This document shows, piece after piece, positions 4,462-30,851 of a stretch of DNA of 35,338 bases. The DNA is taken from the NCBI GenBank assembly GCA_043822345.1, contig JBDRBW010000022.1, forward strand, positions 1-35,338. Reading direction: 5' to 3'. Position numbers and translations under genes: made by a program. The DNA comes from Patescibacteria group bacterium (GTDB lineage Bacteria; Patescibacteriota; Minisyncoccia; UBA6257; UBA11618). A model generated the notes under the pieces. The model was given only the letters and a program-made list of their open reading frames with translations, had not been told where the DNA came from and made no database searches. Within the stretch, counting starts at the first letter, position 1, and every line of letters starts with the position of its first letter.

Positions 4462-5976
4462 TTAGTTAAACCTATTCCTCAAAACTTCCAAAACATAATC
4501 AATCTCTTCTTGGGTAGTAAATTTCCCCAACGAAAAACGGATACTACTCGTCGGCCGATCGTCTCCCCCTGTGTTGCTCGTCATTCTGAGCTTTCGCGAA
4601 GAATCTTTCGCTTGTCGAAGGGCTTCAATTACATGCGACGGCTGGGCCGCCCGCGCCGAACAGGCCGAGACCGTGGAAGCCGCCACCCCCGCCAAATCCA
4701 GTTCAATTATCAAATCCTGCGCCGGCCTCCCCGGAAAATAGATATTCAAATTATTAGGGACCCGTCTCATGTTCGTCATCTCGAGCTTGTCGAGAGATCT
4801 CATCCGCGCCCCTTTCTCATTAAACCAACCATTCACTTCTATATCAGGCACAATTTTCTTCAACTCCTGCCAAAAATAATCCCGTAAACCGCCAATTCTC
4901 TTTACTTCTTCAGTTCGCGCCGCCTCCGCCAGCTCTACCGCCTTACCAAAGCCAACCACCCCTGCCACATTCTCCGTCCCCGCCCGCAGGCCCCACTCCT
5001 GACCACCGCCGGTAATAATAGGATTTAAGATTTTTTTCGGATTTCGCGCGAATAGTGCCCCAACTCCCTTCGGCCCATAAATTTTGTGCGCCGACAAAGT
5101 CATCAAATCAACCCCCAACTCCTCCACATCGCACTTTAGAAATTGGAACGCTTGAACAGCGTCTGTGTGGAAAAGAGGATACATAACGCCGTCATCTCGA
5201 GCCTGTCGCCCGCCCGCCTCGCTATGCAAGGCATTGCGGGCAGGAGAGATCTCAATGATTTGTTTTTTGGACGATGATGAGATTTCTCCACTCCTCCGCC
5301 AGCTGGCGGATTCGGTCGAAATGACACTCTTCTTTTTTACTATTCCATCTCTAAACTCTCCAATCATCCTCCCAATCTCCGCAATCGGCTGTACCACCCC
5401 AATCTCCGAATTCACCATTCCAATAGAAACCAACACTGTCCGCTCATTCAACTCCTCCTTCAACTTCTTCAAACCCACCAACCCTCCTCTGTCCACCGGC
5501 AAATAAACCACCTCCACCCCCCAATTCTCCTCCAAATCCTTACAGGTCGCCAAAACCGAAGAGTGTTCAATCTTAGATGTAATTAAGCGTAGAGGCGCAT
5601 TCGCATGCTGTTTTTCAGAATGTCTCGGAGGCGAGTTTGCTTGGTCCCGCTCCGCGGGAAACTCGCCGAGAGCCAAGCGGCTGGTTTTCGCTGGAAAAAC
5701 CAGACCGCGGTTCTGAAAAATAGCTGCGAATGCGCCTCGGAGCGCCAAATTATTTGCCTCACTCGCCGACCCGGTAAAAATCACCTCATTATATTTGCAA
5801 CCCAACGCCCGCGCTATCTGCTCATGCGCCGTAAACACCGCCCGCGACGCTTCCTGTCCAAAAGAGTGCACCGACCCCGGATTGCCAAAAATTTCACCAC
5901 AATAAGACCGCATCGCCTTTTCCACTTCCTTATCCATCGGCGTTGTCGCCGCATAATCCAAGTAGACACGTTTCAT
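4462..5976 (-). CDS. iscS: Cysteine desulfurase (IscS/NifS family) with four in-frame repeat insertions
   Basis: YLDYAATTP, GNPGSVH, HTDAVQ, SAHKIYGPKG (PLP lysine), RAGTEN and SACS. It is 504 aa versus roughly 380-400 aa typical for the family. Confidence 0.9.
   Translation of the reverse strand: MKRVYLDYAATTPMDKEVEKAMRSYCGEIFGNPGSVHSFGQEASRAVFTAHEQIARALGCKYNEVIFTGSASEANNLALRGAFAAIFQNRGLVFPAKTSRLALGEFPAERDQANSPPRHSEKQHANAPLRLITSKIEHSSVLATCKDLEENWGVEVVYLPVDRGGLVGLKKLKEELNERTVLVSIGMVNSEIGVVQPIAEIGRMIGEFRDGIVKKKSVISTESASWRRSGEISSSSKKQIIEISPARNALHSEAGGRQARDDGVMYPLFHTDAVQAFQFLKCDVEELGVDLMTLSAHKIYGPKGVGALFARNPKKILNPIITGGGQEWGLRAGTENVAGVVGFGKAVELAEAARTEEVKRIGGLRDYFWQELKKIVPDIEVNGWFNEKGARMRSLDKLEMTNMRRVPNNLNIYFPGRPAQDLIIELDLAGVAASTVSACSARAAQPSHVIEALRQAKDSSRKLRMTSNTGGDDRPTSSIRFSLGKFTTQEEIDYVLEVLRNRFN
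4579..4606. repeat. REP-like unit in-frame in iscS
   Basis: CGTCATTCTGAGCTTTCGCGAAGAATCT, translated as DSSRKLRMT. Confidence 0.8.
4774..4803. repeat. REP-like unit in-frame in iscS
   Basis: CGTCATCTCGAGCTTGTCGAGAGATCTCAT, translated as MRSLDKLEMT. Confidence 0.85.
5191..5325. repeat. REP-like doublet (135 bp) in-frame in iscS, with nested palindromes
   Basis: GTCATCTCGA...GTCGAAATGAC. Contains a nested 36 bp unit at 5209-5244 and the perfect palindrome TCCGCCAGCTGGCGGA at 5295-5310. Confidence 0.85.
5592..5738. repeat. Structured multi-stem element, copy A (in-frame in iscS)
   Basis: Arms GAGGCGCATTCGCA...TGCGAATGCGCCTC. Core nearly identical to 30727-30825. Length 147 bp. Confidence 0.85.
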
Positions 5977-6001
5977 ACTTTAAGTATAGAGTATAAAGTA
6001 T

Positions 6002-6697
6002 ATGGCGAAAACAGACAAATGTTTTTATTTATCAAAAATTGATGAGCGCGGCAAATTAAAAATCTGGCTGGTTGACGGCAGTTATATCCGCGGCCACTTA
6101 GACGAAGAATTTACCAACTTCGGCCAGCACTATCGCTATTCCTATATTCCCATCAATGAATTATGGGTTGACCAAGAGGCCGAACACGATGAACACAATT
6201 TTTTCATTGACCATCTTTTAATAGAATATCAATTGATGAAAAAAGGCGCTTCCTACGATGACGCCCTAGTAGCGGCCGACAAGGCCGAACAACGAGAACG
6301 GCGCCGCGCCGGCGATGTTAAAAAACTAACTCATAATGGCCAAAAATTGCCCGATGGAAAAGAGGTTCACGAAGAATTATGGAAAACACTAGAGAATGGT
6401 ATTCAAGTGTGGGTTGTTAACGGCCGATTGGTACGCAGTGTTTTTGACATTGATTTTACCGCCGGCGGCCATGATCATGTTTATGAATTCGTCCCCAAAA
6501 ACGAGGTGTGGATTGATGACGCGATTATTAAACCGGAACGCGGCTATGTCCTCCTCCACGAACTGCACGAACGCAACCAGATGGCTAAAGGGTTGCGTTA
6601 TAGTAAAGCCCACGCCGAATCCAGCCGTTTGGAATTCCATTGCCGCCACCATCCCGACGAACTCCACGACGCCCTCGCTAAAGAAGGCTGGGCATAA
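6002..6697 (+). CDS. Hypothetical protein with two tandem homologous domains, putative metal-binding HExxE motif
   Basis: 231 aa. IWLVDGSYIR...ELWVD...HLLIE aligns with VWVVNGRLVR...EVWID...HELHE. Confidence 0.8.
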   Translation: MAKTDKCFYLSKIDERGKLKIWLVDGSYIRGHLDEEFTNFGQHYRYSYIPINELWVDQEAEHDEHNFFIDHLLIEYQLMKKGASYDDALVAADKAEQRERRRAGDVKKLTHNGQKLPDGKEVHEELWKTLENGIQVWVVNGRLVRSVFDIDFTAGGHDHVYEFVPKNEVWIDDAIIKPERGYVLLHELHERNQMAKGLRYSKAHAESSRLEFHCRHHPDELHDALAKEGWA

Positions 6698-6722
6698 CAC
6701 TAGAAGCTAGAGGCTAATAAAA

Positions 6723-6746
6723 AACCCCAGATGTTATCTGGGGGTT
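6723..6746. terminator. Putative intrinsic terminator between convergent genes
   Basis: Hairpin CCCCAGAT-GTT-ATCTGGGG with an upstream A-tract (a U-tract on the - strand). Confidence 0.6.
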
Positions 6747-6778
6747 GTCAGCTCTTAAGCGGCTGACTTACTATTCTG

Positions 6779-15658: not shown

Positions 15659-15687
15659 TGTTATATTGTTATATTGTTATATTGTTA
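15657..15687. repeat. Octamer tandem repeat (ATTGTTAT x~4) at the folD start
   Basis: ATTGTTATATTGTTATATTGTTATATTGTTA, overlapping the start codon. Confidence 0.8.
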
Positions 15688-15704
15688 AAAATTAAGCAAT
15701 AAAG

Positions 15705-15899
15705 AAACAGGCAACACAGAGTTGTTTCGAAAAGTGTCTCGGAAGCCGCCCGAGCTTGGTGTTTCGCGATAGCGAAACTCGGGCGGCTGAGAGCAAGGAC
15801 GGCTCGCCGCTGCCTGCCCGCCAACGCCAGAGCGTAGCGATGGCAGGCGGGGAGCGAGCCGAGCCGTCTTTCTCGAAACAACCTCTGTGTTGCCTGTTT
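15705..15899. repeat. Structured multi-stem element, copy C, with a nested 39 bp unit
   Basis: Arms AAACAGGCAACACAGAG-TTGTTTCGA / TCGAAACAACCTCTGTGTTGCCTGTTT. Core TGTCTCGGA...CTTGGT...GAGAGCAAG...CGCTG[ins]GA. Abuts the glyA stop. Confidence 0.85.
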
Positions 15900-17117
15900 T
15901 TATAATATAGGGAATTTTTTGCAAATTGCCTTAATTTGGCGGTTGATAGTTGTTGGTTTTGCTTTTTTGAGCAATAAATCGGTAATCCAACTGGCGATTT
16001 TCTTCATCTCTTTTTCTTTCATACCTCGTGTCGTCACTGCTGGCGTCCCCAGACGTAAACCAGAAGGATTGAAAGGCGAGGTATCGCTGGGGATAGAGTT
16101 ACGATTGGCGATAATCCCCGCTTTCTCAAGAAGTCTTTCCGCATTCTTTCCACTATGTCCGGTAGGCCTCAAATCAACCAATATTAAATGATTATCGGTG
16201 CCGCCGGTTACTAAATCAAAACCGACTTTCATTAATTCATTAGCCAACACCTTAGCGTTTTTGATAATCTGTTTTTGATATTGCTGAAAAGATTTTTGCC
16301 GGCCAACAAAAGCCATTAGAGCAATCGCCGCCGTCTGGTTGTTGTGCGGCCCGCCCTGCATCCCCGGAAACACACTGCGGTCAATACGCTTAGCGAGCTC
16401 CTTGCGGCAAATAATTACCGCTCCCCGCGGCCCCCGCAAAGTTTTATGGGTGGTTGTCGTTACCACATCACAATTCTCAAAAGGCGATTGGTGCAACCCC
16501 GTCGCCACCAAACCGGCAATATGAGAAATATCAGCCAAATGATAAGCGCCAATCTTGCGCGCCACCTTGCTAATTCGCTTAAAATCAATTTCCCGCGGAT
16601 AGGCCGTCGTCCCCGAAGTAATTAGTTTCGGTTTGTGGTGATTAGCCAACCGCTCCAAATCCACATAATCCAATAAGCCAGTATCCATCTCTACGCCATA
16701 TTGAAATGCCTTATAAGCCCGGCCGGAAAAATTAACCTTATGGCCATGCGTCAAGTGGCCGCCCGCCGCCAATCGCATCCCCATTATTTTGTCACCAAAA
16801 TCCAATAAGGCGGCGTAAACCGCCAGATTGGCCGGCGAACCGGAATACGGCTGAACATTAACATGCCACTCTTTATCGCTTAGCCCAAACAACTTTAAAA
16901 CCCGCTCCCGCGCCAAATTCTCAATCTTGTCATAAACCTCATTACCCGGATAATAACGCCGCCCTGGGTAACCTTCGGAATACTTATTAACCAAAACCGA
17001 CCCTAAAATATCCAAAACTTCCGGCGAAGCATAATTTTCTGAAGCAATCAAACTAATCGTCTCTTCCTGCCGTTGCTCCTCTTGTTTTATTAATTTGTGT
17101 AGAATTTTGTCTTTCAT
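15900..17117 (-). CDS. glyA: Serine hydroxymethyltransferase
   Basis: LIASEN, NKYSEGYPGRRYY, GGHLTHG, TTTTHKTLRGPRG and SGLRLGT. Start set at MKDKIL because the longer ORF begins inside a repeat. Confidence 0.97.
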   Translation of the reverse strand: MKDKILHKLIKQEEQRQEETISLIASENYASPEVLDILGSVLVNKYSEGYPGRRYYPGNEVYDKIENLARERVLKLFGLSDKEWHVNVQPYSGSPANLAVYAALLDFGDKIMGMRLAAGGHLTHGHKVNFSGRAYKAFQYGVEMDTGLLDYVDLERLANHHKPKLITSGTTAYPREIDFKRISKVARKIGAYHLADISHIAGLVATGLHQSPFENCDVVTTTTHKTLRGPRGAVIICRKELAKRIDRSVFPGMQGGPHNNQTAAIALMAFVGRQKSFQQYQKQIIKNAKVLANELMKVGFDLVTGGTDNHLILVDLRPTGHSGKNAERLLEKAGIIANRNSIPSDTSPFNPSGLRLGTPAVTTRGMKEKEMKKIASWITDLLLKKAKPTTINRQIKAICKKFPIL

Positions 17118-17126
17118 ATATATATT

Positions 17127-17259
17127 CTTTGAATTACGAAACGTCCCATTTGTCATTTCGAGCGTAACGCAGTGAAGTCGAGAAATCTCATAAACTATAC
17201 ATTATTTCAAATCACTGAGATTCTTCGACAAGCTCAGAATGACGTTTCGTAATTCAAAG
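17127..17259. mobile_element. MITE-like composite: REP doublet within 19 bp perfect outer inverted repeats
   Basis: CTTTGAATTACGAAACGTC / GACGTTTCGTAATTCAAAG. 17214-17259 is identical over 46 bp to 34755-34800. Confidence 0.75.
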
Positions 17260-17356: not shown

Positions 17357-17362
17357 AAAGAA

Positions 17363-18424: not shown

Positions 18425-18429
18425 TAATT

Positions 18430-19143: not shown

Positions 19144-19147
19144 TTAT

Positions 19148-19822
19148 CTAGCTTAACACTTTCTCCGCCCCCTTTAAATCCTCTATGGAAGCAATCGGGT
19201 ACCACAACCTCGCCCGCTCAACGGCCACCGGATGTTCCTGCGCCATTAAATGCAACATCGTTGGTAAATGATATTCGCCATTGGCCGCCGCTTTGGCTTT
19301 ATAATTAAAAATACGCTTATCCAGCATCATTACGCCCGTGCTTACCAAACAAGAAGTTGGCTTTTCTGGTTTTTCTATAATTTCACCGACACTACCATTC
19401 TCTCGCAAAGAAATAACCGCGAATCTTCTCGGATCTTCCCGCTCATCTGTTAGTAGACACAAATCGTGTTTTAAACAAGAAGCGAAGTCCTCTGCTCCAT
19501 GCAAATCATCAGCGCAAAGCACAAAAAATCTTTCGTCTCCCAGATAATCCTTGCACAACTCCAAAGCGTGGCCGGTGCCCAATTGTTCTTTTTGCTCAAC
19601 ATAAACCACTTTCCGCCCACAAAACTCTTCGCCACAATATGCCCTAATCTGTTCCTGCAGATAACCAACCACTAAAATCAACTCATCCACCTCCTTGGGT
19701 AACTTTTCAACAATATGCCTAATCAACGGCTTACCGGCCACTTTAATTAACGGCTTTGGTTTTACTAAAGACAGCGGCATCATACGGCTTCCCCGCCCCG
19801 CCGCCAAAATTACTGCTTTCAT
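19148..19822 (-). CDS. Sugar-phosphate nucleotidyltransferase (GlmU/RmlA-like NTP transferase)
   Basis: MKAVILAAGRGSRM..L...KPKPLI.VAGKP and QKEQLGTGHAL. Start set at ATG 19822. Confidence 0.9.
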   Translation of the reverse strand: MKAVILAAGRGSRMMPLSLVKPKPLIKVAGKPLIRHIVEKLPKEVDELILVVGYLQEQIRAYCGEEFCGRKVVYVEQKEQLGTGHALELCKDYLGDERFFVLCADDLHGAEDFASCLKHDLCLLTDEREDPRRFAVISLRENGSVGEIIEKPEKPTSCLVSTGVMMLDKRIFNYKAKAAANGEYHLPTMLHLMAQEHPVAVERARLWYPIASIEDLKGAEKVLS

Positions 19823-19844
19823 CACCTCCAATATATCACATTCA

Positions 19845-22439: not shown

Positions 22440-22465
22440 TATACTTAAATTTTAACATATAAGAG

Positions 22466-22537
22466 GGTGCCTGATGGGGATCGAACCCACGTAGCCGCTG
22501 CCACAGAGCGGTGCTCTACCATTGAGCTACAGGCACC
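22466..22537 (-). tRNA. tRNA-His(GTG)
   Basis: Cloverleaf with anticodon arm CCGCT-CTGTGGC-AGCGG, G-1:C73 pair and GTTCGAT T-loop. CCA not encoded. Confidence 0.93.
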
Positions 22538-22540
22538 ATG

Positions 22541-22612
22541 TGCCGCGAGGGTGAATCGAACACCCGACGCTTTGCTCTTCAAGCAAACGCTCTACCACTG
22601 AGCTATCGCGGC
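22541..22612 (-). tRNA. tRNA-Phe(GAA)
   Basis: GCCGCGA acceptor stem and anticodon arm TTTGC-TTGAAGA-GCAAA. CCA not encoded. Confidence 0.93.
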
Positions 22613-22623
22613 TTACAAGCTCT

Positions 22624-22652
22624 ATTATACTACTTTAACACTCCTAGGTCAA
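22624..22652 (-). promoter_or_regulatory. Sigma70 promoter of tRNA-Phe/His
   Basis: TTGACC-17 nt-TATAAT, 11 nt before tRNA-Phe. Confidence 0.7.
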
Positions 22653-22680
22653 TAAAAATACCAACAACACAAATAAAAAT

Positions 22681-22854
22681 AAAAAGACACCGTAAGGTTG
22701 TTTTGAAAAATGTTTCGGAAATCGCTTGAGCTTGGTGTCCCGCCTACTTTTAAAATTAAACGATGGCGGGACTCAAGCGATTGAGAACAAGAAGCGGCTC
22801 ACCGCTGGAGTGAGCCGACTTCGGTTTTTCAAAACAATCTTACAGTGTCTTTTT
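22681..22854. repeat. Structured multi-stem element, copy D
   Basis: 30 bp arms AAAAAGACACCGTAAGGTTGTTTTGAAAAA / TTTTTCAAAACAATCTTACAGTGTCTTTTT. Core TGTTTCGGA...CTTGGT...GAGAACAAG...CGCTGGA. Confidence 0.85.
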
Positions 22855-22859
22855 TTTAC

Positions 22860-22934
22860 CTACATCATCAACCACCAATACCCCAACGCCACAACCACAA
22901 CAGCCCCAATAACCCACCACCAAACTTTATTCAT
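22860..22934 (-). CDS. Putative 24 aa single-TM microprotein
   Basis: Hand translation MNKVWWWVIGAVVVVALGYWWLMM*. TGCTATAAT lies upstream at 22983-22991. Confidence 0.45.
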   Translation of the reverse strand: MNKVWWWVIGAVVVVALGYWWLMM

Positions 22935-23020
22935 GGTAAATTTGATTTCTTATTAATTTACTCGCGACTGTTTAATCATTTAATTATAGCACACTCACAC
23001 CCCCGCCAAGCTGTGTAAAA

Positions 23021-23266
23021 CTATTTACTTGCTTTGTAAGTTGTCTCGTTCCGTCGTTCGATAGCCAAAATAAATATTTGATTGTTAATTTTTCTGTAAA
23101 TAATTCTCAAATTGCCTTTTCGAACACGAAAAATATCCTCCCTATCTATTAATTTCTTGATATCTAAGCCATTTAAATTATCTGAAGATAATTTTTTAAA
23201 TATTTCCTTTGCAAACTCTCTCTCCTTAACAGAAAGTTTTTTGAGAGCTTTTCCAATTCTATCCAT
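23021..23266 (-). CDS. RelE/ParE family toxin
   Basis: KALKKL...DIKKL....IFRVRKGNLRIIY...ILAIERR..TY pattern, downstream of an antitoxin. Confidence 0.8.
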   Translation of the reverse strand: MDRIGKALKKLSVKEREFAKEIFKKLSSDNLNGLDIKKLIDREDIFRVRKGNLRIIYRKINNQIFILAIERRNETTYKASK

Positions 23267-23269
23267 AAA

Positions 23270-23485
23270 TTAAAGTCGAGAGAGTAAACTCTCAATAGCA
23301 ATACCACCCTTCTTAATTGTGGTAAAATCAACAACTGTTTCCCAGCTATCTTCTTTGATGGGAGATGAAATTTTAAAGATTGGCCGAGAACGACGCAAAA
23401 CAATAAAAGAATCTCCTCTTTCGACACGAGAAATATACCTATCAGTATTCTCTCTTAATTCTTTTAATCCGATAATTTTATTCAT
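23270..23485 (-). CDS. Phd/YefM family antitoxin
   Basis: IIGLKELRENTDRYISRVERGDSFIVLRRSRPIFKI. Confidence 0.85.
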   Translation of the reverse strand: MNKIIGLKELRENTDRYISRVERGDSFIVLRRSRPIFKISSPIKEDSWETVVDFTTIKKGGIAIESLLSRL

Positions 23486-23491
23486 AATCAA

Positions 23492-23520
23492 AGCTTATCT
23501 TAAGATAAACTTTTTGTCAA
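23492..23520 (-). promoter_or_regulatory. TA promoter with palindromic operator
   Basis: TTGACA-17-TAAGCT-6 nt-ATG. The perfect palindrome TTATCTTAAGATAA (23495-23508) overlaps the spacer and -10. Confidence 0.7.
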
Positions 23521-23531
23521 TAAATAATTTA

Positions 23532-23711
23532 TGTACCCCCTGAAGGAAACATTATTGAATCCCCAGGGCGAACTAATGCAAAAGCGATGCCTAAATTAAT
23601 GACGGATTATTTTTTAATCGCTTTTGCGTCCGCCCGTTCGATTCCTACCTCGGCAATTCAATTAAAAATAGACCCGACTGGGTCTATTTTTAATTGTACC
23701 CCCTGAAGGAA
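23532..23711. repeat. 17 bp direct repeat of the tRNA-Arg 3' end (att-like) enclosing a structured segment
   Basis: TGTACCCCCTGAAGGAA at 23532-23548 and 23695-23711. Confidence 0.8.
23659..23696 (-). terminator. Intrinsic terminator after tRNA-Pro/Arg
   Basis: Perfect hairpin CAATTAAAAATAGACCC-GACT-GGGTCTATTTTTAATTG. Confidence 0.7.
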
Positions 23712-23768
23712 TCGAACCCTCATCGACGGGATAGAAGCCCGTTGCTTTGTCCATTAAGCTAAGGGGGC
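23697..23768 (-). tRNA. tRNA-Arg(TCT)
   Basis: GCCCCCT acceptor stem and anticodon arm ACGGG-CTTCTAT-CCCGT. Confidence 0.92.
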
Positions 23769-23842
23769 TGGTCGGAGCACCCAGAATCGAACTGGGACCA
23801 GATCTTCCCAAAAGACCCGTGCTACCACTACACCATGCTCCG
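23769..23842 (-). tRNA. tRNA-Pro(TGG)
   Basis: CGGAGCA acceptor stem, anticodon arm GGTCT-TTTGGGA-AGATC and encoded CCA. Promoter TTGATT-17-TATAAT at 23853-23881. Confidence 0.92.
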
Positions 23843-23930
23843 TATAACCACTATTATACCCCGAAACCACCAAAAAATCAAAAAAAATGTCCGCCAAATT
23901 GACGGTCGTCAACTTAGTGGACAAATAGTT

Positions 23931-24602
23931 CTAGTTTCCAGCCTCTAGCAAGATTTTCACCGTATTACTACAACCAATGCGATTGGCGCCGGCTTCAATC
24001 ATCGTCACGGCAGTAGCGTAATCTTTAATGCCACCGGCGGCTTTGACGCCCAATTCCAGACCAACAGTCCGCCTCATTAGCGCGACATCATAAATCTTCG
24101 CCCCGCCAGAAGCAAAACCGGTAGATGTCTTCACAAAATCCACGCCGGTACTCTTGGCAATCTTACAGGCATTAACAATCTCATCATGATCCAAATAACA
24201 CGTCTCCAAAATCACCTTTACCACCCGATCTCCCGCCAACTGCTTCAAACTCCACCACTCGTTCTCAATAAATTGATAATTACCGCTCTTAAACTGGCCG
24301 ATGTTCATCACTACATCCAACTCTTTAGCGCCATCACGCAAGGCCTCAGTCGCCTCAAGTTGTTTAGCATAAGTAGAGCTAGCGCCCAAAGGAAAGCCAA
24401 TCGTCGCGCAAACTGCGATGTCAATTCGTCCAAGATGTCGCTGTAATCGCTTGGCGGCATATCTTACCCAGCCGGAATTAACGCAAACCGCGTGAGTATT
24501 CCACTCCGCCGCTTCTTCACACAAAAAGGCGATATCCTGCTCGGTGGCATTCGGCTTCAAATTGGTATGGTCAATCATACTGGCTAATTCGGCTCGCTGC
24601 AT
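23931..24602 (-). CDS. deoC: Deoxyribose-phosphate aldolase
   Basis: IDHTNLKP, IGFPLGA, KVILET, VKTSTGF and VKAAGGI. Confidence 0.96.
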   Translation of the reverse strand: MQRAELASMIDHTNLKPNATEQDIAFLCEEAAEWNTHAVCVNSGWVRYAAKRLQRHLGRIDIAVCATIGFPLGASSTYAKQLEATEALRDGAKELDVVMNIGQFKSGNYQFIENEWWSLKQLAGDRVVKVILETCYLDHDEIVNACKIAKSTGVDFVKTSTGFASGGAKIYDVALMRRTVGLELGVKAAGGIKDYATAVTMIEAGANRIGCSNTVKILLEAGN

Positions 24603-24700
24603 TTTTAATCTCCTTTTATGGGACTCTGATTGGAACTGATAAAAAACTTCTCACACTCTAACATATTGAAAATAAAAATGCAAACGATTACACTAAAGCT

Positions 24701-24991
24701 ATGCGATTGATATTAAAAAACTTCACTCAAAATCCCATAGTTTTTATGAGGAATTGTGGCTATGCTTTTGAAAGAAATGTCGGTAAAGAGCAAAGCTTTG
24801 TCCGCCGCATTACCGGCCAGAACTTCCCCCGCTATCATACCTACGTCCGCCAAAGTGGCGCCGATTTGGAAATAAACCTCCACATTGACCAGAAAAAGCC
24901 ATCATACGGCGCCGGCCATGCTCATGGCGGCGACTACGAAGGAGAGCTAGTAGAAAGAGAGCTTGAAAGAATTAAGAGTTTTGTACAATAA
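24701..24991 (+). CDS. Hypothetical protein
   Basis: 96 aa (FPRYHTY...NLHIDQKKPSY...HGGDYEG). TTGAAA-17-TACACT-6-ATG upstream and a terminator downstream. Confidence 0.75.
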   Translation: MRLILKNFTQNPIVFMRNCGYAFERNVGKEQSFVRRITGQNFPRYHTYVRQSGADLEINLHIDQKKPSYGAGHAHGGDYEGELVERELERIKSFVQ

Positions 24992-24994
24992 AAC

Positions 24995-25039
24995 AAAAAC
25001 AGCCGAACACTCAGAGTGCTGAATGCTCGGCTGTTTTTT
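24995..25039. terminator. Bidirectional intrinsic terminator
   Basis: AAAAACAGCCGA...TCGGCTGTTTTTT between convergent genes. Confidence 0.7.
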
Positions 25040-25083
25040 AAAATCTAATGAATTTCTAAAAATTTATTGGGTAGTTACTGGAA

Positions 25084-26943
25084 CTACGAGGGTGTGTTTG
25101 GACAACCAACCATTCCCATAACATCGATAAAACTCTGACAATCAGACGGAGGACTGTTTGGTGGTGGATTATACGGATTCCTACAACTATTGTATGCAAG
25201 AAACATATCAGAGCAATAATAATAATCATTCGTAGAAGCAATGCAATTAGGTTCCCATGTACACACTAAAGAATCTGCCGACTGATAAGCACCACAACTT
25301 CTCTCGCCAAGCGATGCGCATATATTCCTAATAATTGAAGGTTGCCCAGGTTTTGCTTTGCAACAACCGGTTCTTTCTGGGGGTGTGTTTGAACAACCAA
25401 CCATATCTATAGCATCTTTATAAAGCTGACAATCACGTGGAAGACCCATTGGTGGTGGATCATCACCAATATACCTACAATCACTGTAGGCATTAAGCAT
25501 TCCTTGGCAATAGGGCGTAGGATCGCCGGTTTCATAAACAGGACAACTAGGCAACCAAGGAGTAATAATACCTCCTGCCTTCTTACAAGAGTTTTCTTTT
25601 ATATCGTGCATGTATATACCTTTATACAAACAGCATACTTCTTTAACTTCACCTCCATTTCCTGTCCCTGTTCCTGTGCCACTAGCAGGACTACAAATTC
25701 CTCGTAGTTCCCCATTTATGCCCAAATATGTATTAAAAATACATAAACCTGGAGGAGCTTGGTCGCATGAAGCTTTTTGCTCTTTAATTGTTGATCCAGA
25801 ATTATAACCCGTTTCAGGATCATTACAAGCATTCTTCTCCATTATTAATCCTCCACCTCCTCCGCCACCACCGCTACCCGTCCCTACCGGACTAGAACAA
25901 GAATACGCCGCCAGAGAACTATCTGTAACCCCCCATCCTACTATGCCAGGAAGAATGCTAGAACAAATACCGGTTACTACCTCACCCCCTACCGCAAACG
26001 GATCATCTAAAAAGAGATCGGAAAAAAGATCCGACCAATCTCCATCGTCACCAAAAATCTCCGCGCAGATATCACAAGTACCGGTGAGCGCGCAGTCACC
26101 AACCGGGCAAGTGCCAGTGAGCGCGCAGTCGTTAATAAACGGCACCCACTGGCAATGGTTGCCACAAACCGCCTCCGCTGTGCCATCGTCATTAAACAGA
26201 ATATCTCCGGGAGGGTCGCATTCTTCACCAGGACCAACACCGTAGTCACCACAACTACCACCGACATAAAAACACTCTCCACATCGATCGTCACCGGTTT
26301 CCGCACAATCAAAACCTATTCCACATCCATGAGGAACGGCGGAAGAATCACAATTCTCGCCCAAATCATTGACACCGTTGCCGCAAGTTGATGAAGGCGG
26401 AGTTACTGGCGGAATTACTGGCGGAGTCGTGCCGCCACAACCACAAGAGGGCGCACTGCCTCCTGGAAATTCTAGAGAACCAGGTGGATAACCCCAACTA
26501 ACAACACAGCCATAGATGGCATTTGCCGCCTCACAAGCCCCCACATCCGACCCAAAAGCCACGCAAAATGTCATATCACAACCACCGCCGCCACAATAAG
26601 TGCTTAGCAAAGGAACATAACCCCCGGTGGGATTAAAACTACAACAAAGCGGATATTCAGCCGCTTCACAGGCCGCTGAATCAGGATAGACCGGCGGCGG
26701 AATCCCACCTCGACACCCTTCATAATTATCCCAATAACAAACACCTGAAGGGTCGTTATGACAAGCTTCATCATTTGTATACTGCGCACAATTCGCCACT
26801 GGTACCTGCGCCCCCACCTGAACACCAACATCGGTACCGGCCACAAACCATATAATTAATCCGACCATAATAACGGCAAAGACGACCCAAAATAAAGTTT
26901 GGTTTGTCGACATGCCATTGCAACATGTTTTTTTCTTTTTCAT
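25084..26943 (-). CDS. Membrane-anchored Cys/Gly/Pro-rich surface protein
   Basis: 619 aa with an N-terminal TM helix, CGNGVNDLGENCD and CGDYGVGPGEECD repeats, and a duplicated C-terminal Cys module. Confidence 0.8.
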   Translation of the reverse strand: MKKKKTCCNGMSTNQTLFWVVFAVIMVGLIIWFVAGTDVGVQVGAQVPVANCAQYTNDEACHNDPSGVCYWDNYEGCRGGIPPPVYPDSAACEAAEYPLCCSFNPTGGYVPLLSTYCGGGGCDMTFCVAFGSDVGACEAANAIYGCVVSWGYPPGSLEFPGGSAPSCGCGGTTPPVIPPVTPPSSTCGNGVNDLGENCDSSAVPHGCGIGFDCAETGDDRCGECFYVGGSCGDYGVGPGEECDPPGDILFNDDGTAEAVCGNHCQWVPFINDCALTGTCPVGDCALTGTCDICAEIFGDDGDWSDLFSDLFLDDPFAVGGEVVTGICSSILPGIVGWGVTDSSLAAYSCSSPVGTGSGGGGGGGGLIMEKNACNDPETGYNSGSTIKEQKASCDQAPPGLCIFNTYLGINGELRGICSPASGTGTGTGNGGEVKEVCCLYKGIYMHDIKENSCKKAGGIITPWLPSCPVYETGDPTPYCQGMLNAYSDCRYIGDDPPPMGLPRDCQLYKDAIDMVGCSNTPPERTGCCKAKPGQPSIIRNICASLGERSCGAYQSADSLVCTWEPNCIASTNDYYYCSDMFLAYNSCRNPYNPPPNSPPSDCQSFIDVMGMVGCPNTPS

Positions 26944-27072
26944 AAGTTAATTTTAGCAGATATAAAATTAATGCAATAGTGCAAAACTGTGGATAAGTTT
27001 ACGTGAATTTCGAAAGCCAAATTTTGAATTTCGAATAAATTTTGAATTATCTTAATTTCGAAACATTTTTTT

Positions 27073-27550
27073 CGTCATCTCGACCGAAGTGGAGAGATCT
27101 CATTAATGTGGACGCATTGAGATCTTTCGACTCCGCTTCGCTTCGCTCAAGATGACAAGATGACAGAAGTAGTCATCTCGACCGAAGTGGAGAGATCTCA
27201 TTAATTCCAATCATCAGATAAATCCTTAAATTCGGGATTATTTTTCTTAATTAGCTCTATCTTTTTCTTTCTTGACCACCTTTTAAGTTGTTTTTCTCTA
27301 GAAATCGCATCATACGGATTATCAAAAACTTCATAGTGTATAACCTTATTTAAATTATATTTTTCAGTAAAACCTTTAACTTGCTTTTGTTTGTGCTGCC
27401 AAGCTCTGTTAGAAATATCGTTAGTAACTCCTATATAGGATGTCGTATTCCACTTGTTCATCATTATGTAAACATAAAGATTTTTGCTCATAGTGATGTT
27501 GATGAGATTTCTCGACTTCACTCACTTCGTTCGTTTCGCTCGAAATGACG
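27073..27550. mobile_element. Candidate REP-flanked GIY-YIG cassette
   Basis: REP units at 27073-27103, 27118-27156, 27172-27201 and 27502-27550. The last two face each other around the nuclease gene. Confidence 0.65.
27201..27491 (-). CDS. Small stand-alone GIY-YIG nuclease family protein
   Basis: LYVYIM...YIGVTND...R..QH...GFTEKY...YEVF...AISREKQLKRWSR..K..LI...NP. Start set at MSKNLY. Confidence 0.92.
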   Translation of the reverse strand: MSKNLYVYIMMNKWNTTSYIGVTNDISNRAWQHKQKQVKGFTEKYNLNKVIHYEVFDNPYDAISREKQLKRWSRKKKIELIKKNNPEFKDLSDDWN

Positions 27551-27608
27551 GGATTGAAAATTCAGTCATTAGAGTTTTATTCGAAATTCAAAATTAGAAA
27601 TTCGAAAT

Positions 27609-28208
27609 TCAGCGCGTAGCGCTGTCAAATTGCTCCATCGTTGCCGTAAATCGTTGATTGAGTTCGTTAATGTTGCGAATCTCCTGATTAATTGCGTCCA
27701 TATACTGCTTCACTAATTGATCGCTATTCGTCGCTTCTCCTCTAAACTTTTGTTGTAACAAATCATATAACTGGCGCAATAAGCTATGATAGTTAATCAA
27801 GCGATTAACCAAACTCACCTCATAACCCACCGCCTCGGTCGCCAGCGCCTGCGCCTGGCCAGGATTAATCTGCTCCAAATAGGCCGCCATAATACCTAGC
27901 TGGCTGGAAAGTAAAATCGCTTGTTGGCGCGCCTCGCTATTTCTTGCTAGCTCTTTATCGGCTAATTCCAGCGCTTGAGAATATTTTTTCTGCTCATCTA
28001 ATCCGGCGATTTGCTCCAGTCCAGCCAATGATTGGTGCGCCAAAAAAACAATCTGCTCCGCCACCAAAGCGCCGGACTCTCGCGCTTCACTGAATTCATA
28101 AGGAACATAAGGATTCCCCCACCACCAACTCTCCCCAAAAATATAAACGCCGCCGGCAACCAAAAACACCGCTATGGTGGCTATCAAAATAATTTTACGC
28201 GTATCCAT
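27609..28208 (-). CDS. Membrane-anchored helical hypothetical protein
   Basis: 199 aa with an N-terminal TM helix and amphipathic helices. Confidence 0.75.
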   Translation of the reverse strand: MDTRKIILIATIAVFLVAGGVYIFGESWWWGNPYVPYEFSEARESGALVAEQIVFLAHQSLAGLEQIAGLDEQKKYSQALELADKELARNSEARQQAILLSSQLGIMAAYLEQINPGQAQALATEAVGYEVSLVNRLINYHSLLRQLYDLLQQKFRGEATNSDQLVKQYMDAINQEIRNINELNQRFTATMEQFDSATR

Positions 28209-28209
28209 G

Positions 28210-28281
28210 AGCGGGTAAGGGGAATTGAACCCCTGTCAACAGGTTGGAAACCTGTGGTAATAGCCACTATACGATACCCGC
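28210..28281 (-). tRNA. tRNA-Gly(TCC)
   Basis: GCGGGTA acceptor stem, U73 and anticodon arm ACAGG-TTTCCAA-CCTGT. TGCTATAAT at 28292-28300. Confidence 0.92.
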
Positions 28282-28305
28282 TGATTCATGTATTATAGCA
28301 TAGAA

Positions 28306-28330
28306 GTAACTAAAACGCCATTTTTTCGTT
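28306..28330 (+). promoter_or_regulatory. Putative ECF autoregulatory promoter
   Basis: GTAAC-16 nt-CGTT directly before the ECF sigma ATG. Confidence 0.5.
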
Positions 28331-28334
28331 ATCT

Positions 28335-28889
28335 ATGTTAGAGGACGAGTATAAAATAATAAAACGCGCCCAACGAGGTGATCAGGAGTATTTCGGCCAA
28401 TTGTACGACCACTATACTCCCCAAATCTACCGCTTCGTCTTCTTTAAGGTCGGTCACCAACAGGAGGCCGAAGATCTGACGCACGAGATATTTCTCAACG
28501 CCTGGAAGAATATTGATAATTTCACCTATCGAGGACACCCCTTTTCCAGTTGGCTGTACCAAATAGCCCGCAATCGCATTATTGATTACTACCGCGCGAA
28601 AAAAGATACCATTTCCCTAGATGATGTAAAAGAGATAATTCCCGAAACCGGCAATAGTATAGAAGAACGGCTGGACATCGGCTATGATATGGAAAAAATC
28701 AAGATGGCGATGCGACAGCTAAACGGAGACCAGCAGAACGTTATCATTCTTCGTTTTATTGAAGAACTATCCCCCGCCGAAATCGCCAAGGCAATGGATA
28801 AAAGCGAGGGCGCCGTCCGCCTCATCCAACACCGAGCAATTAAAAATCTTCGCGTCATTCTGAACACAAGTGAAGAATCTTATGAATAA
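28335..28889 (+). CDS. ECF RNA polymerase sigma factor
   Basis: Region 2 AEDLTHEIF...FSSWLYQIARNRIIDYYR and region 4 LSPAEIAKAMDKSEGAVRLIQHRA. Confidence 0.93.
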   Translation: MLEDEYKIIKRAQRGDQEYFGQLYDHYTPQIYRFVFFKVGHQQEAEDLTHEIFLNAWKNIDNFTYRGHPFSSWLYQIARNRIIDYYRAKKDTISLDDVKEIIPETGNSIEERLDIGYDMEKIKMAMRQLNGDQQNVIILRFIEELSPAEIAKAMDKSEGAVRLIQHRAIKNLRVILNTSEESYE

Positions 28890-29241
28890 TCTAGAACAAC
28901 AACTAAAACAATTAAAACACCTGAAACCCGACCAGGAGTTTTTGCAATACTCGCGGCAAGAAATTTTAAACACATCCAAGCCCCCCCGAAGTATTTTCTT
29001 ACTTAAAAATAGTTTAAACTTCGCCGTTGCCGTCGGCTTGGCGGCGCTACTGATGTTTGTCGTTACTGATGGCCTTAACAAAAGTGCCCAACCATCATCG
29101 CTAGTGGAGAACAAGCCAGATTTCAGCATTAAACTGGAAGAGGCGCGTTATTTTAAAGAAATTGCCCCCGATGTTTATGTGGTCGTCCTCAACGACGCTC
29201 CCGAAAACACCGAAAGGACTATAGAAGAGCTGACTAAGTAA
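28882..29241 (+). CDS. Single-TM protein, putative anti-sigma factor
   Basis: Overlaps the ECF stop. Short cytoplasmic N-terminus followed by a TM helix. Confidence 0.6.
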   Translation: MNNLEQQLKQLKHLKPDQEFLQYSRQEILNTSKPPRSIFLLKNSLNFAVAVGLAALLMFVVTDGLNKSAQPSSLVENKPDFSIKLEEARYFKEIAPDVYVVVLNDAPENTERTIEELTK

Positions 29242-29285
29242 ATTAAAAAATCGCCTCGATTGTTTGTCGAGGCGATTTTTTAATT
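29241..29285. terminator. Bidirectional intrinsic terminator
   Basis: AATTAAAAAATCGCCTCGA-loop-TCGAGGCGATTTTTTAATT. Confidence 0.75.
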
Positions 29286-29557
29286 TACATAACAGCTTCT
29301 TTCATCAACTTACCCGGTCGAAACTTGGGCTTGACCATCGCTTTAATCTTAATCGCTTCACCAGTGGCCGGATTACGGCCCATTCTTTCAGCTCTCTTAT
29401 AAACCTTAAAGGTGCCGAAGCCGGTAAAGACCACATCCTCGCCGCGGCTCATTGTCTTGACAATAACATCAAGAACGGCCTCAACAGCGGCCTGCGCCTC
29501 CTTTTTCTGCATGCCAGTCGCCTCAGCGACGGCCATAACGAAATCTGGTTTCTTCAT
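29285..29557 (-). CDS. hup: DNA-binding protein HU
   Basis: GFGTFKV..RAERMGRNPATGE.I.I....PKFRPGK. Confidence 0.95.
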   Translation of the reverse strand: MKKPDFVMAVAEATGMQKKEAQAAVEAVLDVIVKTMSRGEDVVFTGFGTFKVYKRAERMGRNPATGEAIKIKAMVKPKFRPGKLMKEAVM

Positions 29558-29646
29558 AAAAATATAAACTTAAAAACGACCTTTTACTTCTAGAGTATAG
29601 CAAAAATAGCTATTTTATACCAGCTAAATAAATTATCAGCAACTTA

Positions 29647-30582
29647 CTAAGGAAATGGTGAGTTGGTCAAGGTGGGTTGAGGTCTTAAAAACTTATTTTT
29701 AAATTCATTAAAAATCTCTTGAAGAACAGGACTATTTCCATTGCCGTTATTGTAATCCCTAAGCTGTATAAAATACCGCGATGATAACGCCTTAGATATT
29801 CTTTCTATTAAAGAATCCACACACTCCTCATTATTTTCACAATAAGACTTAATCTTATTTAATACGCTATTATCTGCTTTAATAATGCTTACAAAAATTT
29901 TAGCAGTAAGTTCCCAATCTTCCTGTTCAGCAAATATCTCTACAAAATTGAAATAACCGATTACGCCCTCAAAAAATAAACTGATAGGAGCAACTACTCT
30001 TCCCGCAATCCTCCACCCCGTTCCCGCTTTGGAAGAACACCATCGCCACAACCTACTCAACGCGCCAACCTTTGTTCCTCCTCTCTTCAAATATTGTATT
30101 ACATCCTTCAGTTGTTTAATCTTATCTTTCATCATCTTTATTTGATCACGCGTCCCCGGCATATCCATCATAATATTTCTTCCTCGTCGGCTAATATAGT
30201 CAGAATGACCGAATATTTTTTCTTTAAGAGCCGTATATCTATTATATCCCGGAGTTCCTTCTGGTGCGCTTCTCAGAGACTCAAGCTCCCAGAGGTCCTG
30301 TGTTATCTCTACTTCCGCTCTTCTAAGAGCCGCTTCCATACCCCCAAGTCTCGCTTCTAAATTTGGCACATCCAAAGCGGAAAGCCTTCCTCCTAGAAAA
30401 TCTGGCACAGTAGGTCCTTCTGCCTTGATTAATTTTGGTATTGGTTGACTACTTTTATAAAAAACAAACCCGATACCACTACTAACCACAACAGCCACAA
30501 TTAAAACCGATACCAAAAAACTAGTCCAAAAACCGACCTCGCGCACCGGTCTAAAAAGAAACTTCTTTAAGTTATTTTTCAC
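29647..30582 (-). CDS. Membrane-anchored coiled-coil orphan protein
   Basis: 311 aa with an N-terminal TM helix, a coiled-coil segment and a second hydrophobic stretch. TGATAGAAT lies 6 nt before the GTG. Confidence 0.7.
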   Translation of the reverse strand: MKNNLKKFLFRPVREVGFWTSFLVSVLIVAVVVSSGIGFVFYKSSQPIPKLIKAEGPTVPDFLGGRLSALDVPNLEARLGGMEAALRRAEVEITQDLWELESLRSAPEGTPGYNRYTALKEKIFGHSDYISRRGRNIMMDMPGTRDQIKMMKDKIKQLKDVIQYLKRGGTKVGALSRLWRWCSSKAGTGWRIAGRVVAPISLFFEGVIGYFNFVEIFAEQEDWELTAKIFVSIIKADNSVLNKIKSYCENNEECVDSLIERISKALSSRYFIQLRDYNNGNGNSPVLQEIFNEFKNKFLRPQPTLTNSPFP

Positions 30583-30700
30583 CCTTTAATTCTATCACAA
30601 AATCTATATTTTATTCCCACTAAAAAGAGCGAAACCCACGCTGTTCTATAATAATAGATAAAAAAATAAGTAACGCGGAGTTGCAGAGAAAAATGTTAAA

Positions 30701-30851
30701 ACAACGGTAGTGGATATAGTTCGAAGGAATGTCTCGGAGGCGAATTTGCTTGGTCCCGAGCTTGCGAGGGAAATTCGCCGAGAGCCAAGCGGCTGATTTT
30801 CGCCGGAAAAATCAGACCGCGGTTCCTGAGAGCTATATCCACTACCGTTGT
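30701..30851. repeat. Structured multi-stem element, copy B
   Basis: Perfect 19 bp arms ACAACGGTAGTGGATATAG / CTATATCCACTACCGTTGT. Core matches copy A. Lies 7 nt after the rny stop. Confidence 0.85.

Follow-up and report, generated by a model that had tools for sequence, protein, structure and literature searches.

Four sequences in the window, the 35,338-nucleotide stretch of a patescibacterial contig analysed here, belong to a strongly folded repeat that had not been catalogued before and that recurs across the tiny genomes of Patescibacteria, even within essential protein genes and rRNA genes. The fold is under selection. The repeat reaches new loci, and its sites are gained and lost between close relatives; its copies persist where a self-contained hairpin is tolerated, namely in protein loops, in a 16S rRNA gene, in the spacers of tRNA operons and in the bases that follow stop codons. 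The element is probably a non-autonomous palindromic repeat family of Patescibacteria, of the same kind as the Rickettsia palindromic elements (RPE) and other MITE-like repeats. An earlier note on the window had described four copies of an unrecognised element with a common layout, all in one orientation and in or just after minus-strand ORFs, among them iscS, glyA and rny. The copies lie where it placed them, with that layout and gene context and all on the + strand (Table 1), and its view of them as an unrecognised structured multi-copy element is borne out: the stems covary and no Rfam family fits.

Table 1. Copies of the element in the window, with the nested hairpin and neighbouring genes.
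Feature	Position	Strand	Description
copy 1	5592..5738	+	subfamily A; core 5607-5724; R1 115.2 bits; in frame in iscS, antisense
copy 2	15701..15904	+	subfamily B; core 15721-15883; R1 97.8 bits; abuts glyA stop
copy 3	22681..22854	+	subfamily C; core 22697-22838; R1 111 bits; antisense to two tRNA genes
copy 4	30701..30851	+	subfamily A; core 30716-30836; R1 122.3 bits; 8 nt past rny stop, antisense
nested hairpin	15812..15850	+	39 nt, GC-rich, in P3 loop of copy 2
iscS (cysteine desulfurase, 504 aa)	4462..5976	-	hosts copy 1 and further in-frame insertions
glyA (SHMT)	15900..17156	-	stop at 15900 adjoins copy 2
two tRNA genes	22466..22612	-	69 nt from copy 3
rny (RNase Y)	30859..32382	-	stop at 30859, 8 nt from copy 4

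Family identity and distribution

Searched against the window at the gathering score, Rfam 15 returned only five tRNAs and nothing at the element copies, and a search of copy 1 at E ≤ 10 gave a single chance match of 9 bits. At 48 copy-bearing loci, the gathering score yielded tRNAs and one 16S rRNA gene, with no family fitting the element, and below that score only chance matches appeared.

The 520,449-base genome to which the window belongs (G000; assembly 77.5% complete) contains 17 strong and three weak copies, 135-249 nt in length. An exact two-motif pattern matched 12 sites in the whole genome (none for a reversed control), a looser regular expression recovered 17 copies, and the covariance model R1 gave 20 matches at E ≤ 0.01, of which 17 had E ≤ 4.7e-21 and three were weak. 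With the covariance model, the repeat was found in 31 of the 60 further genomes sampled from the order (32 of 61 with G000), each bearing 1-20 matches, and in seven of 150 genomes sampled across the phylum (eight of 151 with G000). Those matches that carry names are Patescibacteria MAGs.

Conserved fold

What is conserved is a unit of ~120 nt folded as a three-way junction, in which a long stem, P1, closes both P2 and P3. P2 is interrupted by a 3-nt bulge (CG-N-A) and by a GCWTGGT bulge and has a free tip, and P3 ends in a CG(C/T)(T/A)GGA loop. The predicted fold of copy 1 has an energy of -89.7 kcal/mol, compared with -50.3 +/- 3.8 kcal/mol in 200 shuffles (z = -10.4). Among the 17 cores of G000, 25 of 35 predicted pairs hold pairing through two-sided changes, and the compensatory stem changes to which the earlier note had pointed are therefore real; the variable base of TGT[C/A/T]TC, for example, covaries with that of GA[G/T/A] (C-G in 12, A-U in three and U-A in two). 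The larger, 30-copy alignment likewise supports the structure: 33 of the 35 pairs are altered on both sides, and 93.6% of the cells are paired, against 60.8% in shuffles, none of 500 of which reached the observed value, and 36-50% in slid controls. The unpaired motifs are conserved phylum-wide.

The pseudoknot suggested in the earlier note did not hold. The bulged (G)CTTG(G) is indeed complementary to (C)CAAG(C) in the window copies, but this complementarity is neither conserved nor covarying in relatives, the six pairs concerned being paired in 61.7% of cases versus 62.9% after shuffling, with 438 of 500 shuffles reaching the observed value. In one copy (C24:2039), it is an ordinary helix that the G-to-A and C-to-T changes restore.

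In some copies, the outer part of the closing stem repeats, in inverted form, the host sequence lying on the gene side. The arm that lies beside alr spans ~40 nt of the alr coding end, and the far arm is an inverted copy of that stretch (match score 39, with a shuffle mean of 13.9 and a maximum of 26); the C-terminus of Alr is complete by Pfam. The termini are common within a genus only and differ between the copies of G000. Insertions are mirrored in both arms. The closing stem of copy 2 has an A-run on its 5' side and a T-run on its 3' side. The 39-nt hairpin nested in this copy is also found, by alignment, in two further copies (C4:11528 and C26:1095), and metagenome contigs jump exactly from 15811 to 15851, that is, without it. 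A related palindrome occurs in iscS at 5202-5244.

Sites of insertion

The same site of iscS is occupied in five genomes (G000, G002, G009, G013 and G030), where it measures 66-90 amino acids versus 23-36 in empty alleles, and the reading frame is open in all five, as it is across an insertion in mnmA of G002. In G000, the iscS translation crosses copy 1 without a stop, and comparison with solved cysteine desulfurase structures places query residues 92-130 opposite two chain residues, which marks them as an insertion. These open frames imply that the element stays in the mRNA and is translated with it; a self-splicing or otherwise excised intron was rejected on the same ground, all six coding insertions examined staying in open frame. 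The P3 loop encodes a recurring (A)PA(A) peptide in the iscS and mnmA insertions. At least one frame is open on the host-sense strand of 42 of 47 cores, compared with 29 of 47 for the other strand, revealing a depletion of stop codons.

Elsewhere, one copy forms a stem-loop insertion of ~150 nt within a 16S rRNA gene (locus L047), two loci have copies between tRNA genes (L031 and L040), and ribosomal-protein operons also contain copies. Most copies lie just outside ORFs.

Evidence for mobility

Two comparisons of copies within G002 gave 96% and 95% identity over 178-182 nt, with flanks of 40-53% identity. Within one genus, the iscS site is filled in G009 and empty in G016. A three-locus alignment of the gatB 3' flank detects a copy in G015 but not in G009 or G016, the GatB proteins being 94-96% identical. 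G009 and G015 differ in the variant present at one orthologous site, with 74% identity in the element and 88% in the left flank. Some copies are nested in one another or have doubled arms. No direct repeats, and hence no target-site duplication, were found around the 95-96% identical G002 copies, and no clean empty-versus-filled junction was seen among the metagenome contigs and compared loci. Of the three identities offered in the earlier note, the mobile element folding as single-stranded DNA is the nearest, its mobility being supported by the in-frame insertions, the near-identical copies in unrelated flanks and the gain and loss of copies; an independent ncRNA gene is unlikely, and nothing supports a ribozyme.

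No transposase or autonomous partner was found for the element. Y1_Tnp occurs in 13 of the 32 genomes with the element and in six of the 29 without it; in G000, at its 77.5% completeness, neither Y1_Tnp nor TnpB was matched and a reverse transcriptase (RT) appeared only as a sub-threshold fragment, and in G002 and G046 none of the listed Y1 genes is near a listed copy. A larger, ORF-carrying version of the kind that the earlier note had envisaged was also not found: in five genomes, the arm motif of genus g4 marks element-sized sites only (known copies and two previously unlisted ones) and never flanks a larger unit. A classical MITE was rejected, as the terminal inverted repeats are not conserved, there is no target-site duplication and there is no longer relative with the same ends. 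A REP/REPIN-RAYT or IS200/IS605 derivative was rejected because Y1_Tnp fails to track the element and is absent from the G000 matches.

Comparison with known systems

The closest likeness is to RPE, described in the passages of PMC10969869 devoted to it as a palindromic repeat of ~150 bp with many copies in a reduced genome and no known transposase, frequently inserted in frame in unrelated housekeeping genes, where it encodes a recurring peptide. The present element is likewise palindromic and multi-copy, is in frame in iscS and mnmA and encodes the (A)PA(A) peptide; the host phylum differs, and the likeness, drawn from description, is one of kind and not of descent. It differs from RPE in conserving a three-way junction whose loops do not vary, in having a variable closing stem that may hold host sequence, and in lying mostly just outside ORFs with a strong orientation bias.

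The ERIC/IRU, Correia (NEMIS) and BOX/RUP/SPRITE repeats, which are MITE-like and fold in mRNA, are characterized in the corresponding passages of PMC10969869 as sequences of 100-200 bp that form long hairpins and are co-transcribed with their neighbours, and the effects of repeats of the ERIC/Correia type are there said to depend on orientation, with nesting in one another possible. That group has conserved terminal inverted repeats and, in several cases, target-site duplications and related IS, whereas the present element has variable termini, and neither a duplication nor an IS relative turned up for it. Numerous insertions shorter than 200 bp, lacking ORFs and matching none of the intron classes, are reported for CPR rRNA genes in PMC11270868; the stem-loop in a 16S rRNA gene resembles these and rRNA intervening sequences, but the element is found mainly outside rRNA genes. 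REP/BIME, REPIN and IS200/IS605 palindromes are alike in being structure-dependent and strand-specific without target duplications; however, REP stems are short and conserved in sequence, and REPs flank a RAYT gene, while Y1_Tnp does not track the present element. Integron attC sites are recognised by structure and lie at the 3' end of genes, and their folding strand is complementary to the coding strand. The element differs from attC in having no R/L box pattern, cassette arrays or integrase context, and its hosts are core housekeeping genes.

Strand and orientation

In G000, 15 of 17 copies are antisense to the host gene. Among 98 unique copies, 42 are antisense and 14 sense, a bias of ~3:1, with 35 left unclassified because the gene calls were ORF-based and seven partial copies skipped. 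The bias is weaker in this wide sample than in G000. Orientation tracks the neighbouring gene and not the contig. The ratios of G-T to A-C are 37:13 and 20:7 in core pairs and 22:10 in the outer arms, and folding favours the + orientation in 17 of 17 and in 26 of 30 copies, although the wobble counts overstate significance, since the copies are related and the alignment was partly fitted to the + strand. Where the earlier note saw no decision on the strand from G-T pairs, the wobble counts allow a sharper statement, favouring the + orientation by ~2-3 to 1. They would point to the strand complementary to host transcripts as the one that folds, and the antisense bias may result from the copying mechanism or from the elimination of copies in which the opposite strand interferes with host transcripts or reading frames.

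Alternative explanations

It is conceivable, if rather doubtful, that the element is a cis-acting RNA module formed by the reverse complement of the + orientation, serving as a 3'-end stabiliser, an RNase III/RNase Y processing site or an inter-cistronic insulator, with mobility accounting for its distribution only. Host transcription yields one particular strand in most classified copies (42 versus 14), and many copies lie 0-130 nt past the stop codons of housekeeping genes, including those for L11, L14, L21, GyrA, SHMT, RNase Y, Alr and an aminoacyl-tRNA synthetase. Some gene ends bear copies in more than one genus, the 3' end of glyA also in G001 and that of rny also in G016, and the iscS site is likewise shared; with the phylum-wide motifs, this fits a selected cellular function as well as it fits a mobile element. 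ERIC and Correia repeats act on mRNA via RNase E and RNase III, as stated in the part of PMC10969869 concerned with them. On the other hand, the wobble pairs favour the strand that is absent from host transcripts, copies in ORFs and in a 16S rRNA gene are hard to square with a cutting signal, sites turn over among close relatives, and about half of the order's sampled genomes are without any copy. A T-run follows the stem in six of 70 copies on one strand and in six on the other, and the remaining 58 have neither, so the copies are not generally intrinsic terminators, a candidate that was rejected.

An unlikely alternative is a SINE-like short retroelement, for which a resident RT (of the DGR or group-II type) would make cDNA antisense to the transcript, the folded cDNA then integrating at hairpins or microhomologies. 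The strand favoured by wobble is cDNA-like, being the complement of host transcripts, and the lack of target-site duplications is also compatible; moreover, in three genomes (G056, G044 and G054) a copy lies within ~1 kb downstream of an RT gene, accompanied in G044 by an Avd-like gene whose match (E = 7.8e-18) falls short of the curated cut-off. However, RVT_1 is present in just 13 of 32 element-bearing genomes and also in eight of 29 without the element, G009 and G002 have six and nine copies, respectively, and no RVT_1 match, and the RT-adjacent copies are mixed in orientation (two sense and one antisense). In G044 and G056, the differences of copies from the RT-adjacent one, compared by eye and uncounted, are compensatory stem changes or whole-hairpin swaps and not adenine-focused, and a DGR template/target repeat was rejected on this basis and because RT adjacency is confined to the three genomes.

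A free-standing structured ncRNA or self-cleaving ribozyme gene in many copies is very improbable: strong covariation, invariant unpaired motifs, the better folding of the + strand and an A/T-rich TATGACAT-like motif that precedes several copies in genus g4 would suit it, but copies within open ORFs, a 16S rRNA gene and ribosomal-protein operons make an independent gene unlikely, the pseudoknot is unsupported, upstream flanks compared by eye share that motif only within g4, with no promoter motif common across lineages, and neither the gathering-score searches of the window and 48 loci nor the E-value searches matched an Rfam ribozyme or ncRNA. Nothing in the analysis supports the ribozyme-like motif of the earlier note.

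Mechanism and significance

For a non-autonomous palindromic repeat, the preferred reading, intrastrand template switching at the hairpin, as DNA is synthesised, could build the closing stem and keep it perfect, which would also explain the missing target-site duplications, the mirrored arm insertions and possibly the copying itself; the conserved unpaired motifs may be where some factor recognises the element as a folded single strand. A bolder proposal, put forward only tentatively, is that the element is either a transposase-free, structure-driven parasite, whose very stable junction hairpin would trigger template switching, enter new sites at microhomologies and make its closing stem by backward copying of the adjacent host strand, or the target of an as yet unknown enzyme of Patescibacteria that recognises DNA folded as a single strand. 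If true, either reading would represent a new way for DNA to move and for the smallest genomes among bacteria to gain segments of peptide and rRNA.

The unusual anatomy of the element, with its invariant loops, covarying stems and host-derived arms, makes the movement of RPE-type elements testable by genome comparison. Adding the family to RNA and repeat libraries would stop gene callers and ncRNA screens from misreading its copies, as in the case of a false 'domain' of 45 amino acids in IscS. Patescibacteria genomes are among the smallest and most compact, yet G000 carries ~20 copies of this repeat of 120-250 nt, one of them inside iscS; some of the short rRNA insertions without ORFs noted in CPR can now be assigned to a concrete family, which also helps to explain the extra segments of CPR proteins.

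Fold and identity of the element

The four copies described in the window were recovered at the same positions, on the + strand and with the same order of motifs, and copy 1 folds with an energy of -89.7 kcal/mol, compared with -50.3 ± 3.8 for shuffles. The source genome (G000; 520,449 bases in 27 contigs, 77.5% complete, 43% G+C), of which the window is contig C22, contains 12 sites with the exact two-motif pattern and none with a reversed control, while a looser regular expression yielded 17 copies of 135-249 nt, which form three subfamilies of 8, 5 and 4 members. A covariance model (R1; 121 positions, 35 pairs) built from the cores of these 17 copies, the conserved units within the arms, recovered all of them at E <= 4.7e-21, together with three weak copies.

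The fold of the element is real. The covariation of its stems, claimed in the earlier note from four copies, is borne out by the 17 cores, in which 25 of the 35 predicted pairs keep pairing through two-sided changes. Among 30 copies from 29 other genomes, such changes occur in 33 of the 35 pairs and 93.6% of cells are paired, against 60.8% in shuffles; none of 500 shuffles matches the observed value on any measure, and controls with slid partners pair at only 36-50%. The overall architecture is a three-way junction closed by stem P1. Inner stem P2 starts with a YCYC/GRGR helix, followed by a three-base bulge (CG-N-A), the bulge GCWTGGT and a free hairpin at its end; inner stem P3 bears the loop CG(C/T)(T/A)GGA and is able to hold an extra hairpin. 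An additional asymmetric loop, with TGGC facing GACAGGA, and a helix outside it are present in some copies. The pseudoknot that had been considered possible did not survive: its six pairs are 61.7% paired in the 30 copies and 62.9% in shuffles, 438 of 500 of which equal or exceed the observed value. Its partner is not kept, relatives reading CGTAG, GCAG, AGAA, CGAA and others while the GCWTGGT bulge stays, and in the copy at C24:2039 both changes instead restore the ordinary helix 15-16/95-96.

In agreement with the description of the element as unrecognised, Rfam 15 at gathering score reports only five tRNAs in the window, and a permissive scan of copy 1 returned one 9-bit chance match. Across 48 copy-bearing loci of other genomes, Rfam identified tRNAs and one 16S rRNA gene, with no family for the element and only chance matches below gathering score. 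A search of the open literature found no paper in which terms for MITE, REP or palindromic elements are combined with Patescibacteria or CPR.

Distribution and genomic sites

Within the order of G000, R1 has matches in 32 of 61 genomes, from many families and with 1-20 matches each, and across the phylum in eight of 151 genomes (G000 included in both counts); these sets are samples, and lack of a match means not found in the genomes searched. All matched genomes are 0.4-1.3 Mb in size. A pattern scan of the whole genome collection gave mostly chance matches, R1 confirming two of the 80 loci given to it, one in a MAG of Candidatus Spechtbacterales (96.8 bits) and one in a MAG of Candidatus Saccharibacteria (44.3 bits), and nhmmer matched two more loci of the same scan (L137 and L153). 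Taken together, the R1-positive genomes and both MAGs indicate that the family belongs to the Patescibacteria (CPR). A two-motif pattern scan of viral contigs, a weak search, returned at least 116 stretches, and R1 confirmed none of the 80 loci listed.

In 15 of the 17 copies of G000 the + orientation is antisense to the gene that contains the copy or ends 0-70 nt away, and where genes converge (five pairs), it is the nearer one to which the element runs antisense. The hosts are housekeeping genes (encoding IscS, SHMT, RNase Y, GyrA, Alr, a class II aminoacyl-tRNA synthetase, L11, L14 and L21); since ribosomal protein genes are among them, several copies lie inside operons. When a crude ORF rule was applied to the 98 unique copies from all loci examined, skipping seven partial hits, 42 were antisense (28 after a gene, ten inside a long ORF, four convergent), 14 were sense (eight, two and four, respectively) and 35 were unclassified. 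Copies are also found between tRNA genes, antisense (L031 and L040), and singly beside tRNA (L035 and window copy 3), with a sense copy at L227. At L047 a copy lies antisense inside a 16S rRNA gene, which spans 2071 nt for 1512 model positions; the same gene contains a group-I-intron-like stretch of 38.5 bits, below gathering score.

Coordinates of the features discussed (contigs are those of G000 unless another genome is given; C22 is the window)
Feature	Contig	Position	Strand
Element, copy 1	C22	5592-5738	+
Element, copy 2	C22	15701-15904	+
Element, copy 3	C22	22681-22854	+
Element, copy 4	C22	30701-30851	+
iscS	C22	4462-5976	-
Small palindrome in iscS (residues about 212-264)	C22	5202-5244	
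Small palindrome in mnmA	C9		
Related hairpin in P3 loop	C22	15812-15850	
Related hairpin in P3 loop	C4	11528 (position of the copy)	
Related hairpin in P3 loop	C26	1095 (position of the copy)	
Hairpin, stem of at least 12 bp; CACG(A/G)(T/C)CGTG-type palindrome	C22	12806-12851	
Hairpin, stem of at least 12 bp	C22	14196-14226	
Hairpin, stem of at least 12 bp	C22	23659-23696	
Hairpin, stem of at least 12 bp	C22	24995-25038	
Hairpin, stem of at least 12 bp	C22	29238-29288	
CACG(A/G)(T/C)CGTG-type palindrome	C9	2442-2491	
CACG(A/G)(T/C)CGTG-type palindrome	C25	2265-2314	
CACG(A/G)(T/C)CGTG-type palindrome	C4	10893-10934	
GTTATATT tandem array, immediately upstream of copy 2	C22	15660-15686	
ATTGTTA-type repeat, long imperfect palindrome	C25	2860-2911	
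ATTGTTA-type repeat, long imperfect palindrome	C27	22921-22976	
ORF with metagenome pile-up	C22	14774-15658	-
Pile-up of metagenome contigs	C22	about 15042-15076	
Bin of high summed depth	C22	14604-15254	
Open frame with RVT_1 match	C10	13783-14082	
Locus L047, with the 16S rRNA gene	G020:C3	8942-11097	
Element in L047 16S gene		1501-1628	antisense
Group-I-intron-like stretch in L047 16S gene		880-1165	
RT locus L246	G044:C1	52500-57500	
RT locus L245	G056:C42	9500-13500	

Read-through in protein genes

The insertion of copy 1 into IscS follows the conserved EANNLALRGA, and residues 92-130 of the query face two residues in a solved cysteine desulfurase chain. Five genomes (G000, G002, G009, G013 and G030) have the site filled, EANNLA and IEH being 66-90 residues apart, and three (G016, G017 and G007) have it empty, the distance being 23-36; each of the five filled alleles keeps its reading frame open. 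MnmA of G002 also carries the element in frame, and the invariant P3 loop translates as (A)PA(A). The host-sense strand is depleted of stops, at least one frame being open in 42 of 47 cores compared with 29 of 47 on the other strand. As the element is thus read through in protein genes, intron-like removal is excluded. In-frame read-through is also what a review of MITEs says of Rickettsia palindromic elements (PMC10969869), which are the closest to the element in behaviour.

A second, smaller GC-rich palindrome of approximately 40 nt lies in frame in IscS and MnmA of G000, with the shared peptide ISPARNALHSEAGGRQARD; a related hairpin occupies the P3 loop of three copies, which are thus a case of nested repeats. 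Two more stretches of IscS, at about residues 385-402 and 445-473, align to gaps in the solved homologue and may represent further in-frame insertions.

Origin of the closing stem

The inner ~20 bp of P1 in the G000 copies are family sequence, whereas the arms beyond are unique to each copy. At alr, the gene-side arm spans ~40 nt of coding sequence and the stop codon, and the far arm repeats it in inverted form (score 39, against 13.9 ± 2.2 and a maximum of 26 in shuffles); no part of the Alr domain is missing at its end. By gyrA and by a gene on C4, the arms of the copies take in the final 12 nt of the coding sequence. The gene-side arm at iscS encodes the native RGA/V motif, and empty iscS alleles have no matching inverted repeat downstream. 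Host DNA thus supplies at least part of the stem, during or after insertion. Intrastrand template switching at quasi-palindromes, known from templated mutation in E. coli, would be the simplest known process for building such a stem; selection would then retain only events that overwrite the unconstrained side.

Alternatively, the element could have inserted into pre-existing terminator hairpins. Several copies have A- and T-runs outside the arms, and the 0.52 Mb of G000 include 81 hairpins whose stems reach 12 bp or more, many of them terminator-like. However, the alr and iscS arms include coding sequence that is non-palindromic in empty alleles; this route is therefore at most part of the story. 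The element itself does not read as an intrinsic terminator, T-runs not being general among copies, and when 15300-31200 was scanned for promoters and terminators, the P3 hairpin of copy 3 gave the sole signal, a weak one.

Among the 81 hairpins, one terminator-like family, AAACGGCTCAC...GTGAGCCGTTT or AAACGGTCGCC...GGCGACCGTTT, has stems equal to the P3 stem and P2 tip of subfamilies B and C. Another palindrome family of G000 is built around a constant centre (CACG(A/G)(T/C)CGTG or close to it), with perfectly paired arms of 12-21 bp that differ per copy, and is often flanked by TTGAGT/GAACTC; it follows the same pattern as the main element, a conserved centre with variable arms.

Mobility and partner proteins

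Comparison of copies shows that the element moves or is copied. Two copy pairs in G002 are 96% and 95% identical over ~180 nt, with flanks only 40-53% identical. In G009, G015 and G016, whose GatB proteins are 94-96% identical, the occupied sites differ (iscS and the gatB 3' end), and one site common to G009 and G015 holds different variants. P3 stems have been swapped whole between otherwise similar copies in G044, and some copies have doubled, mirrored arms. Arms are common to copies within a genus, and only the fold and loops persist across genera. On the other hand, different genera have copies at the glyA and rny 3' ends and at the iscS site, which implies that copies either persist for long or enter preferred sites repeatedly.

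In genus g4, the gatB flank, the one flank aligned, was not alignable beyond the stop codon and gave no empty-site junction. At the ftsZ and pilB-like loci, the contig of the closest relative (G016) breaks off directly at each of the two genes, and the other matches are only 76-83% identical. Four metagenome DNA runs, with short contigs, contained no joint skipping a whole copy, the uncovered parts being uninformative. Separately, metagenome contigs pile up with loose ends on both sides within the minus-strand ORF 14774-15658, where the summed depth of the bin is 67-862, compared with about 1-60 elsewhere; this is a short stretch common to many organisms or loci.

No partner protein tracks the element among Y1_Tnp, TnpB and RVT_1 in G000 or Y1_Tnp and RVT_1 in the 61 genomes, and a search by arm motif found no larger, ORF-carrying version. 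Three RT genes have a copy within ~1 kb downstream, in mixed orientations, one of them beside an Avd-like gene. At L246 and L245 a group-II/DGR-type RT has the copy at its 3' end on the same strand, and in G044 the Avd-like gene is divergent beside the RT. A link to DGRs was rejected, copies showing no adenine-focused differences by eye. A 126-aa open frame on C10 with a sub-threshold RVT_1 match (25.6 bits) is possibly a reverse-transcriptase remnant.

The folding strand

The + orientation gives the better fold in 17 of 17 and 26 of 30 copies. G-T oppositions outnumber A-C ones 37:13 and 20:7 in core pairs; for the outer arms, to which no model was fitted, the ratio is 22:10. G-T pairs had been said not to settle the strand; the counts favour the + orientation, although they are suggestive only, the copies being related and the counts modest. 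The usual biases of transcription and replication would be expected to produce the opposite skew. The wobble skew and the better folding suggest that the strand under folding constraint seems to be the one complementary to host transcripts, which fits a single-stranded DNA or cDNA intermediate, or an antisense RNA. The strand preference is the main unexplained point about the element.

Conclusions

The element is a new family of palindromic, MITE-like repeats with an anatomy that is a new variant; Rfam has no entry for it, although it occurs widely in Patescibacteria. A selected RNA role of the element in host transcripts is a live rival to this reading. Short uncharacterised rRNA insertions have been reported for CPR (PMC11270868), and the element is likely to be the identity of some of them.
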